DNA of 64,000 bases from Eledone cirrhosa (GCA_964016885.1 OZ024743.1:171244001-171308000); one strand, 5' to 3'. Shown: positions 45,043-48,785, counted from the first letter of the stretch. Made by a program: numbers and translations. Notes: generated by a model from the sequence alone, not told the origin.

Positions 45043-45475
45043 TTTATCGTTTTCGGTACGCCCGGTCGACTAACTCACTCGATATACACATTAGGTTGCT
45101 CAGCCGTAAATATGCATACGGAAAGTATATACTTTCAAACTTTCAATCGACTGACAGGAAGGTATACGATGCTGATGACAGCTAATAAGCTAGAAACTAG
45201 TTCATCGTTCCTTTGTCAGTGTTGAACAAAAGGGAAACGATGGTTGCCGAACAGTGTACGGCTTAAATCGGGCTGTTTGTTTACAAACAAACCGAACATT
45301 AAAATAAATGTTCGGTAAACCCATACGTACATATATATATATATATATATGTGTGCATGTATGTATGTATATACATACTACTGTACGTCTGTATACATAT
45401 ATGTATGTACGTATATATACTTATATTTAAGTATCAGCCGTACTAAGAGTGAGAAATGAAATTTTATTTTTTCCA
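45043..45475 (+). mobile_element. Non-coding HHR element (family B), monomer
   Basis: Diverged homologue of 48298-48785 in a different permutation. Confidence 0.75.
45167..45207 (+). ncRNA. Canonical minimal type I hammerhead ribozyme
   Basis: CGATG-CTGATGA-C-AGCT-AATA-AGCT-A-GAAA-CTAG-TT-CATCG. Confidence 0.9.
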
Positions 45476-45727
45476 TATATATATATATATATATATATAT
45501 ATATATATATATATACATGTATATATATATATATATATATATATATATATATATATATATATATATATATATATATATATATATATATATATGTGTGTGT
45601 GTGTGAGTGAGTGTGTGTGTATATATATATATATATATATATATATATATATATATATATATATATATATATATATATATGTGTGTGTGTGTGTGTATGT
45701 ATGTATGGATATATATATATATATATA

Positions 45728-46563
45728 TAAATCAGGAAAGAAGGTTTACATGGTTTGCTATACAAAAAAGTTTTTAATCACATAGCTTACATTTGTTTCA
45801 CTGAACTGGTGTGTCTAGAGATCGCTATCCGCCTAATTTTGCGTCACTCGATCGCCAATACAGAATTATAACCAGTCAGATCTTCGGAGCATGCGAGAAT
45901 GAAGAAAATACACAGGCAAGAAAAGAAAAGAAAATATGGAGTAGTTATGGCATTCAATTAGAACAATAACAACAACAATTATTACAACAATGCTATCAAT
46001 AAACTATTTAAGGAGACCCTGACATTACTTAGGTGGGGGGTATATAATGTATCTAATGTTACGGCGTGAAAACCAGCTGTCATAAGGCAAAAAGTATCGT
46101 AGTGTGTATCAATTTTAAATTATAAAGATAAGCTAGTTTTTACAGTCTTTTTACTAGCTTATCTTTATAATTTAAAATTGATACACACTACGATACTTTT
46201 TGCCTTATGACAGCTGGTTTTCACGCCGTAACATTAGATACATTATATACCCCCCACCTAAGTAATGTCAGGGTCTCCTTAAATAGTTTATTGATAGCAT
46301 TGTTGTAATAATTGTTGTTGTTATTGTTCTAATTGAATGCCATAACTACTCCATATTTTCTTTTCTTTTCTTGCCTGTGTATTTTCTTCATTCTCGCATG
46401 CTCCGAAGATCTGACTGGTTATAATTCTGTATTGGCGATCGAGTGACGCAAAATTAGGCGGATAGCGATCTCTAGACACACCAGTTCAGTGAAACAAATG
46501 TAAGCTATGTGATTAAAAACTTTTTTGTATAGCAATCCATGTAAACCTTCTTTCCTGATTTAT
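45728..46563. repeat. ~410-bp-arm near-perfect palindrome carrying mirror HHRs (46397-46509 +, 45781-45893 -)
   Basis: Arms 45728-46137 / 46152-46563; GCT-CCGAAGA-T-CTGACTGGT...ACCAGTTCAG-T-GAAA-CA-AA-TG-TA-AGC. Confidence 0.85.
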
Positions 46564-48014
46564 TATTACTCCAAGTGTTTACAACATAGGAATTACAGCA
46601 TACCCGCAGCATCACTATGAAAACGCCTTGTTGAGTCAAACCAAGCCAAGCGTTAATATCATCCACTACCTGGAATACCATAACTGGACTTCACCTAAGT
46701 GGACTGCATTTAACTATTATTTGTTAATCCGTATATATATATATATATCTATATATATATATATGTGTGTGTGTGTGTGTGTGTGTGTGTGTGTGTGTGT
46801 GTGTGTGTGTGTGTGTGTGTGTGTGTGTGTGTGTGTGTGTGTGTGTGTGAGTGTGTGTGTATATATATATATATATGTCTGTGTGTGTGTGTGTGTGTGT
46901 GTGTGTGTGTGTGTGTATGTATGTATGGATATATGTGTGTGTGTGTGTGTGTGTATGTATGTATGGCTATATATATATATGCAAAATTAGAACTTTCGAA
47001 GTGAAGAGGGATCATGAAGTTCATAGGAAATGTAGTATACTCAGACGCAGAAAATAACTGTAAATACAAACATTTGCTATATAAATAGCTTCGAAAATAG
47101 ATGGCAAAAAGTTGCCAGAGGCCATTACTAGGAATCAAACCTCATATCTCTCATATACCGGCTTTCTGTTTTAGCTTATGACAACATCTTACCGTCCAAA
47201 TTAGGAAGCTGAATGAAACGGCTTTGAACCTGTAAACAAATATCGTATGCAAAGTTCGATCTTTTGGCACGCCGAGCGATTGTCAATGGTTAGAGCATCT
47301 ATTCAGTATCTGAGAGATATGAGGTTCGATTACTCGTAGCAGCCGCCGGCAAATTTTTTCACTATAAGTGGTCTTTACCGGATAATCTAAGCTATTTCAG
47401 GATACTGCTGTAAGTGACAGATATATAAGTCTCTTAGCTTCATATCTTCTTGTGGTTGCTTAGATATACATATCTTTTGATGCGAATACTCAAATGTTTG
47501 AATATCAATTTAAGATATTTATCTTTTTTCCAATTTACAGGGATGTGTGTAAAATGTGGTAGTGTAAATTTATATACACATTTATGCACTTTTGGTTACC
47601 TCTGCATCGTATATATAGATACATAAATGTATCGTATAATTCGGATCCGTAGCACAACTTCTCCATAGGTTTATAAGGTGGTAAATTAGCTGAATACACA
47701 CACACACACACACACACACACACACACACACACACACACACACACTCACGCACGCGCACACACACACACAACCACACGCACACACACACGCACACACACA
47801 CACACACACACACACACACACACACACACACACACACACACACACACATATATATATATAATGTAGGAGGTGAGTTTTATTGTAGAACAATAAAACTATG
47901 CATATATCGGATAAGTAGCACTCAACAGTTTATTGGACTGGAGTATATATAAGAAGAAATTAAAAGATTGTTAAAAAATTTCATTTCATCTTATATATAT
48001 ATATATATATATAT

Positions 48015-48785
48015 ATTGAAACAAAATGAAAACGAAATTTCATTTCTCACTCTTAGTATGGCACTTACTTAAATGTAAGTATGCATGTACACGTACATAC
48101 ATATATGTATACAGACGTACAGTAGCATGCACATATATATATATATATATACATATATACATACATATGCATACAGGTACACATACATATATGTATGTAT
48201 CAGTTTAGCGGCGCTTATTATAACGTCGCTTTGTTCGTTTGTAAACAAACTGAACAGCCTGAATTTATGCCATACGGTGTTAAGGCAACCACGTCATACA
48301 TACTTACATTTAAGTAAGTGCCATACTAAGAGTGAGAAATGAAATTTCGTTTTCATTTTGTTTCAATTTATCGTTTTCGGTATGCCTGACCGATTTAACT
48401 CACTCAATATGCAAATTAGGCTGCTCAGCCGTTAATTTTCATAAGGAGAGTATATACTTTCGAACGTTCAACTATCTGGCAGATGGGTAAACGGTGCTGA
48501 TGATAGCTAACAAGCTTGAAACTAGTACATCGTTCCTGTGTCAGTGTTGAACAAAAAGGTGACGTGGTTGCCTTAACACCGTATGGCATAAATTCAGGCT
48601 GTTCAGTTTGTTTACAAACGAACAAAGCGACGTTATAATAAGCGCCGCTAAACTGATACGTGCATATATGTATGTGTACCTGTATGCATATGTATGTATA
48701 TATGTATATATATATATATATATATGTGCATGCTACTGTACGTCTGTATACATATATGTATGTACGTGTACATGCATACTTACAT
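48015..48785 (+). mobile_element. Family B HHR element: permuted ~480-nt unit plus inverted arm
   Basis: ATACTTACAT at 48300 and ~48776; 48015-48296 is an inverted copy spanning the unit junction. Confidence 0.8.
48490..48534 (+). ncRNA. Canonical minimal type I hammerhead ribozyme
   Basis: AACGGTG-CTGATGA-T-AGCT-AACA-AGCT-T-GAAA-CTAG-TA-CATCGTT. Confidence 0.9.

Follow-up and report, generated by a model that had tools for sequence, protein, structure and literature searches.

Tandem arrays of a hammerhead-bearing retroelement in Eledone cirrhosa and a probable passage through edited RNA circles

Non-LTR retrozymes are non-coding retroelements found as tandem repeats that carry hammerhead ribozymes. 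In the model proposed for those of animals, a circular RNA primed by a reverse transcriptase (RT) gives rise to tandem cDNA, and elements of the Penelope type (PLEs) are the candidate donors of the enzyme (Cervera and de la Pena, 2020; PMC7229834). In that account, reverse transcription of the circle is presented as a hypothesis and editing as a suggested cause of circRNA heterogeneity. A 2026 preprint ties retrozymes to the terminal repeats of PLEs; it also reports that 8 out of 9 predicted frog elements failed to cleave in vitro (bioRxiv 10.64898/2026.07.22.740005). Also described is a metazoan type I hammerhead whose helix III, short and palindromic, requires a dimer (PMC4209133).

On the side of PLEs, in vitro work on Poseidon, a PLE of Anolis, showed that the RT starts at two internal sites, one on each side of the tail (Frangieh et al., 2024; PMC11167929). 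An antisense PLE template was considered earlier by Arkhipova et al. (2013; PMC3846280), who left the strand open. In these accounts, the step from circle to tandem DNA is thus far a model, and both the strand and the form of the PLE template are left open. Finally, the editing enzyme ADAR is described as disfavouring a 5' G and favouring inverted repeats (PMC5663115).

Here we describe a repeat, family B, seen in a window of 64,000 nucleotides of Eledone cirrhosa (GCA_964016885.1, OZ024743.1:171244001-171308000) and in copies collected from the rest of the genome. Plain positions are counted from the first letter of the window. Family B is very probably a non-LTR retrozyme, that is, a non-coding, hammerhead-bearing tandem retroelement, mobilised in the fashion of a PLE.

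The family B unit and its ribozyme

The family B unit is 466-478 nt long and has no coding capacity. The first-pass annotation had already seen no credible ORF, and the longest ATG frames are microsatellite read-throughs or frames of 54-85 aa across the unit. G or C occupies 133 of 340 alignment columns, i.e. GC is below 50%. We number the unit c1-c466, c1 being position 48310, the base after the core end; predicted cleavage then falls at c217/218. The annotation bounded the unit by a single 10-mer, which is indeed present at 48300-48309 and 48776-48785 with a period of 476 nt, the start that it gave (48298) being two bases early.

Two copies lie in the window. The first is two-armed. Its inverted arm (48015..48296, minus strand) is 5'-truncated and covers about 0.6 unit; the outer end of this arm is the tail end (c57-62), followed by (TA)n. 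After an inversion junction at 48295..48299, with a 2-nt overlap or a 2-nt filler, the direct arm (48299..48785, plus strand, 1.03 units) continues beyond the ribozyme site as far as the core end, c466, where (TA)n follows. It contains the tail segment c1-62 (48310..48371, plus strand), between both fixed 3' ends, and an internal (TA)/(TATG) microsatellite (48656..48730, plus strand) that serves as a landing site for other insertions. The whole insertion occupies a TA run beside a remnant of a Hydra-clade PLE, consisting of a 3' end and tail (47860..47994, minus strand, 135 nt, 83% identical). The second copy (45043..45476, plus strand) belongs to an older subfamily; it is single-armed, 5'-truncated at c58, and has its tail end in (TA)n. 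As annotated, it is a diverged copy, with 76% identity over 409 nt. Its description as a different circular permutation does not hold, since there is no free permutation and the tail end is the same as in other copies.

Elsewhere in the 3.0-Gb assembly, family B forms natural head-to-tail arrays at many loci, with a 466-nt period and sometimes more than 10 units, and at least four subfamilies can be recognised. Genome searches gave 126 and 2957 candidates; as common words are skipped in these searches, the numbers are lower bounds and not copy numbers. Read-set matches also occurred under 15 other organism labels. Three of these read sets were checked: one covers only the element and the neighbouring LINE, at low depth and without unique flanks, another gave two short pieces and the last nothing. 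Horizontal spread was therefore not accepted.

The window contains several other repeats. Two near-perfect palindromes, at 45727-46563 (411-nt arms, 100%) and 44429-44710 (137-nt arms, 97%), may each be another two-armed insertion or an artefact; the latter is a dispersed repeat. A broken, high-copy RT fragment of the non-LTR (LINE) type lies at 49088-49700, and a tRNA-like match within a repeat, possibly a SINE head, at 32154-32223 on the minus strand. A second hammerhead repeat family, with a period of about 525-535 nt, a GUU triplet, a long helix II and terminal redundancy, is present at 51493-52172 and 59920-60596, and at several other genomic loci.

Both window copies of family B carry one type I hammerhead, on one strand only. 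That of the direct arm (48490..48534, plus strand) has a GUA triplet, a U-U at the base of helix II and a palindromic loop 3, with CUGAUGA at 48497. That of the older copy (45166..45208, plus strand) has a GUU triplet and a C-A at the base of helix II, with CUGAUGA at 45172. Cleavage is predicted at 48527/48528, after GUA, and at 45202/45203, after GUU. In both, helix III is of 1-2 bp with a palindromic loop. In a canonical type I hammerhead, the base of helix II is paired and the residue at the cleavage site is not U. Pairing at the base of helix II is absent from both window copies, and the 45043 subfamily has U at the cleavage site. The annotation had reported two complete canonical hammerheads; both cores are present, but "canonical" was too strong in view of the helix II mismatches and of a search of Rfam at the gathering threshold, which returned no hammerhead match. 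On the other hand, helix I contains an internal loop, loop 2 has 4 nt, and family B has the features listed for the metazoan type I hammerhead of PMC4209133, namely a conserved core, a 6-bp helix I, a 4-bp helix II, a 1-2-bp helix III and a palindromic loop.

In 64 natural copies, which also pair over an extended helix I (48466..48552, plus strand), 97.4% of the cells of the named ribozyme structure are paired. None of 500 shuffles scores as high, and slid controls reach 28-42%. Two-sided changes are found in only three ribozyme pairs, no more than in shuffles; helix I holds one and helices II and III none. Covariation support for the hammerhead structure is modest. The natural monomer, taken from ribozyme to ribozyme, folds at z = -6.4, partly owing to its microsatellite. 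Judged from sequence, self-cleavage by the family B hammerhead is likely.

Insertion anatomy and candidate enzyme donors

Family B arms end either at c466 (core) or at c57-62 (tail, hence 57-62 nt long). The two ends lie about 60 nt apart and are both followed by (TA)n, and nearly all 3' ends adjoin TA runs, while inner ends are scattered. We examined 53 two-armed insertions, of which 43 were classed by script at both ends. Forty-one of the 43 have one core and one tail end, 22 with the core on the left and 19 with the tail on the left; the exceptions are one core/core and one tail/tail. By eye, the tail/tail row proved to be mis-parsed, being really core/tail, and L057, counted among the 41, has no readable left end. 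In the other 10 insertions, one end lies in the internal microsatellite or was unparsed. A target duplication is clear in one case among 34 insertions, and is hidden by pure TA elsewhere. By analogy with Poseidon (PMC11167929), the tail segment 48310..48371 would sit between two RT start sites.

The 5' ends behave differently. They are spread round the unit and do not pile up at the cleavage site, with 2 of 94 within 5 nt for 2.2 expected. Random circular permutation of the copies was rejected, the 3' ends being fixed and only the 5' ends variable. According to the annotation, its reading would fall if every copy began at the same point, joined to a coding element. This is not the case: the 5' ends are spread, and most family B copies have no adjacent RT.

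The same annotation noticed that the inverted arm crosses from the end of the unit to its start. This is borne out by two alignments: 48560-48788 corresponds to 48296-48070 of the minus strand (97.8% over 229 nt), and 48295-48371 corresponds to 48087-48011 (97.4% over 77 nt). From this crossing, the annotation argued for a circular or multimeric template. Such a template is supported, but not by that argument. It is owing to its tail, which ends at one of the two fixed 3' ends, that the arm spans the junction, and the crossing piece is a PLE tail; a linear ribozyme-cut monomer, from c218 to c217, already holds the junction and could serve as its template. What bears on the template is the length of the arms. 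In a hand-compiled list of 94 arms, all 72 that reach the cleavage site pass through it, and 53 are longer than one unit, 25 longer than two and 7 longer than five. Many loci were found with ribozyme-covering queries; the core-end query alone needs no ribozyme, and at the loci that it retrieved 22 of 22 arms, counted by hand, pass the cleavage site. In the window, both the direct arm, with its 1.03 units, and the 45043 copy traverse it. Since arms extend past the cleavage site and exceed one unit in length, and since some arrays repeat one edited unit (see below), an uncleaved or circular template is needed.

Which enzyme could copy such a template? The likeliest donors, acting in trans, would be the Hydra-clade PLEs of the same genome. 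Two Hydra-type families with intact ORFs show the two-end anatomy and the TA target seen in family B. The first encodes 830 aa (150 copies scored, 99-100% protein identity); the second encodes 821 aa and is 46% identical to the first over 499 residues. In keeping with the Hydra clade as described in section 11 of PMC8557442, their proteins have RW[R/T], DKT, CxCX5C, CxxC and CxH motifs, with a GIY-YIG-type domain at the C terminus, and both families carry a hammerhead close to the 3' end and have TA as target. The RWK-like motif is RWR in one family and, read by eye, RWT in the other. A Pfam search with two PLE fragments gave no RT or GIY-YIG match, and a search of PDB sequences with the second PLE protein gave nothing useful. 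Naiad was rejected as a helper, the nuclease domain being C-terminal.

Two junctions bring family B and these RTs together. Beside an array on C1, a family B arm of 60 nt meets a 5'-truncated ORF for RT and nuclease from the 830-aa family, the two overlapping by 2 nt, and at C13:17.88M a family B arm is joined to an inverted piece of the 821-aa family. Both junctions suggest co-insertion, although they may also result from nested insertion. They do no more than suggest it, because no sequence similarity links family B to the terminal repeats of either Hydra family compared, and because a Hydra element is nested in the internal TA run of family B at C4:375.78M.

Further observations concern these PLEs. 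In the hammerhead of the 830-aa PLE, at L089:1621 and 7914, the helix II region measures 116 nt; this PLE has a tail of 137 nt and forms 6.3-kb tandem arrays of near-identical intact copies (L089). At C4:375.78-375.79M (L174-L175), a 6.5-kb composite of about four family B units and a nested two-armed Hydra-type PLE is tandemly repeated. A third retrozyme-like array, with near-identical units and a 310-nt period, abuts a Hydra-type PLE end at C1:125.786M (L179:100-2200). The 64 kb of the window hold at least five decayed Hydra-like PLE remnants (42253; 40779-41975; 5788-7238; 27547-29202; 8649-9714; 53623-54137), and the one at 42253 has a hammerhead.

Locus-private A>G changes and the form of the template

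Private changes were scored by comparing units within and between insertions with the commonest letter of each column, in 48 insertions and then at 23 more loci. Most young insertions have no private shared changes. In four insertions, all outside the window, private substitutions are repeated unit after unit, on both arms in two of them and in alternating unit types in one. All 37 repeated private changes are A>G on the ribozyme strand, whichever genomic strand this is (38 of 40 before three subfamily markers are dropped). At C1:437.95M, where two arms hold 9.1 and 2.6 units, 7 of 7 private changes are A>G, all 11 units that cover them carry them, and the microsatellite segments, 12 of 12, do not differ either. 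C17:3.055M, also two-armed, shows 9 of 9 A>G, in 11-12 of 11-12 units. The seven units at C1:365.5M share 11 of 11 A>G when the subfamily markers c58, c296 and c297 are left out, and 12 of 14 with them. Finally, the single-armed insertion at C2:69.56M has 10 of 10 A>G, with a strict alternation of two unit types over 8-9 units. Some of these Gs were present in the queries that retrieved C17:3.055M, C1:365.5M and C2:69.56M. Where the query gave no advantage, 28 of 28 changes are A>G; among single-unit changes, the figure is 41 of 278. Over the 48 insertions, shared changes comprise 46 A>G and 12 T>C, and single-unit changes 28 and 18, respectively. The haplotypes of C1:437.95M, C17:3.055M and C1:365.5M each find a full match only at their own locus among the 40 candidates scored.

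This multi-site pattern is rare (4 of 71 loci) and concerns the young and middle subfamilies. A weaker fifth case is C2:45.65M, with 5 of 8. In samples that lean to near-query copies, the third subfamily has no such insertion in 27 loci, and 43 units of the 45043 subfamily show no excess (33 A>G vs. 22 T>C, p=0.18). The ORF of the 830-aa PLE has no A>G excess either (21 A>G and 17 T>C in 34 pieces). In the window, the direct arm has a single A>G, c139, at 48448 on the plus strand; two of the arrays with multiple changes have c139 altered as well.

The sequence context of the changed sites agrees with the ADAR pattern described in PMC5663115 as regards the avoidance of a 5' G, which precedes 0 of 25 distinct changed sites and 16 of 76 other adenosines (p=0.007). 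No change affects the 14 adenosines of the ribozyme core (p=0.013, post hoc). A 3' G is not enriched at changed sites (p=0.53), and pairing of these sites in the predicted monomer circle is no higher than elsewhere (0.41 vs. 0.56). Since the changes are A>G on the ribozyme strand, the template would have been sense RNA. It would seem that editing affected a single RNA unit, or a single RNA of two units, which was subsequently copied over and over in one event, into both arms.

As a whole, the mechanism that we consider probable is that edited ribozyme circles are copied round and round into (TA)n by a borrowed Penelope-type RT. Tandem or hairpin transcripts would be A-to-I edited by ADAR, hairpin transcripts from two-armed loci offering a likely place for editing. 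Paired hammerheads would free monomers or dimers, which would then be ligated into circles. A dimer of the RT-endonuclease would nick both strands of a TA run, and cDNA synthesis would begin at two internal positions of the sense RNA, with one cDNA from each. Each cDNA would lap the circle from 0.1 to more than 10 times, inosine being read as G at every lap, and the two 5'-truncated cDNAs would be joined head to head through short microhomology. Rolling-circle reverse transcription explains in one step the repeated haplotypes on both arms. With slightly less assurance, we also favour the reading that ADAR-edited monomer or dimer circles are reverse transcribed lap by lap into the germ line, the edits becoming inherited DNA changes, each array being the record of one RNA molecule, and the sense circle, on which the arms started at two sites, being the transposition intermediate.

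Of the other explanations, the one that survives best, though we regard it as unlikely, has a linear uncleaved multimeric transcript as template; short edited insertions would later be expanded in DNA by unequal crossing-over or slippage, and a circle would be unnecessary. In the in vitro system of PMC11167929, the PLE used unprocessed RNA and cleavage was dispensable. Mosaic and higher-order arrays do exist. Older, mosaic arrays are found at C2:45.65M, C3:356.47M and C1:75.7M, and the array at C12:20.4M includes partial units; amplification at the DNA level therefore also happens and could explain the single-armed arrays, among them the alternating C2:69.56M, which could be a duplicated dimer. 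However, at C1:437.95M, and likewise at C17:3.055M, the two opposite arms of the insertion repeat one haplotype private to that locus, which would require two separate mutation-free expansions in DNA. In addition, the units of one linear transcript are expected to be edited independently, as both unit types of C2:69.56M are. Other arrays of interest are a seven-unit array at L033 (C1003) with period-2 variants, two of them A>G, and a satellite-like array of the third subfamily at C12:20.40-20.42M, with full and half units over about 25 kb.

Much less probable is an origin of the A>G sets without editing, either as variants of small unsampled source subfamilies or as polymerase errors. One A>G, c296, did turn out to be a subfamily marker, and the genome searches score only 40 candidates and skip common words. 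Against unsampled subfamilies, the haplotypes are private to single loci, and the recurring sites c97-109, c139-143, c73 and c247-248 occur in tree-incompatible combinations; RT errors, for their part, would vary from lap to lap. Neither origin fits with 0 T>C among 37 changes and the avoidance of a 5' G. About equally improbable, or marginally more so, is that the unit is the pLTR of an unsampled autonomous PLE, the copies being truncated ends of that element. The anatomy does match PLE ends (PMC8557442), and vertebrate retrozymes are related to pLTRs (bioRxiv 10.64898/2026.07.22.740005), but family B forms head-to-tail units, more than 10 in some arrays, with no ORF between, and the two Hydra pLTRs show no match; family B may still have originated from a PLE pLTR. 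The last possibility, an inverted arm that is an assembly or fold-back artefact, can practically be dismissed: other near-perfect palindromes are present in the window and no independent read was seen across the junction, but the arms differ by about 2% and dozens of loci show both same ends with differing junctions.

Relationships with known systems

Full-text searches of a mainly open-access literature returned no report of family B or of editing imprints repeated across retrozyme arrays; supplements may list such families. The class of element is known, and the genomic evidence for a circular intermediate would be unusually direct. Arrays in which a single edited unit recurs on both arms, or in which two separately edited units alternate, provide a test for any assembled genome with active editing, and the A>G arrays point to a route from RNA editing into heritable sequence. 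A young retrozyme family beside young intact PLEs is also material for reconstitution.

Family B resembles the animal non-LTR retrozymes of Cervera and de la Pena (2020; PMC7229834) in having non-coding tandem repeats, one type I hammerhead per unit, low GC and a predicted fold that is stable; the axolotl HHR_Amex2 of the same article likewise has U-U at the base of helix II. The unit is longer than the 170-400 nt given there, and within the 51-972 nt of the preprint (bioRxiv 10.64898/2026.07.22.740005). Expression, cleavage and circles were shown in PMC7229834 and are putative for family B; in contrast to the account given there, the genomic copies of family B carry a repeated, strand-specific A>G imprint. 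A viroid-like replicating circle would show ribozymes or edits on both polarities, whereas family B has 0 T>C among the 37 changes.

With PLEs (Craig et al., 2021; PMC8557442; PMC3846280), family B shares 5' truncation, an inverted truncated copy at the 5' end, a tail at one end and (TA)n targets. It differs by the absence of an ORF and by a tail of 57-62 nt instead of 30-40 nt, and it adds to PLE anatomy a count of tail-versus-core pairing (41/43). The strand of its A>G changes points to a sense template, as opposed to the antisense template considered in PMC3846280. The route proposed for family B is also close to that of Poseidon (PMC11167929), in which the tail lies between two start sites, AT-rich DNA is cut on both strands with extension of each, and a dimer is predicted. 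However, Poseidon belongs to another clade, is described with linear templates only, and showed no difference in start site between strands, whereas the two arms of family B nearly always use different ends. Finally, Roll-Seq (PMC11331410) follows the same logic, a change present in all repeats of a rolling-circle cDNA being assigned to the RNA and a change present in one to RT error. Roll-Seq is a laboratory method; the record kept by family B would be a natural one, written in the germ line.
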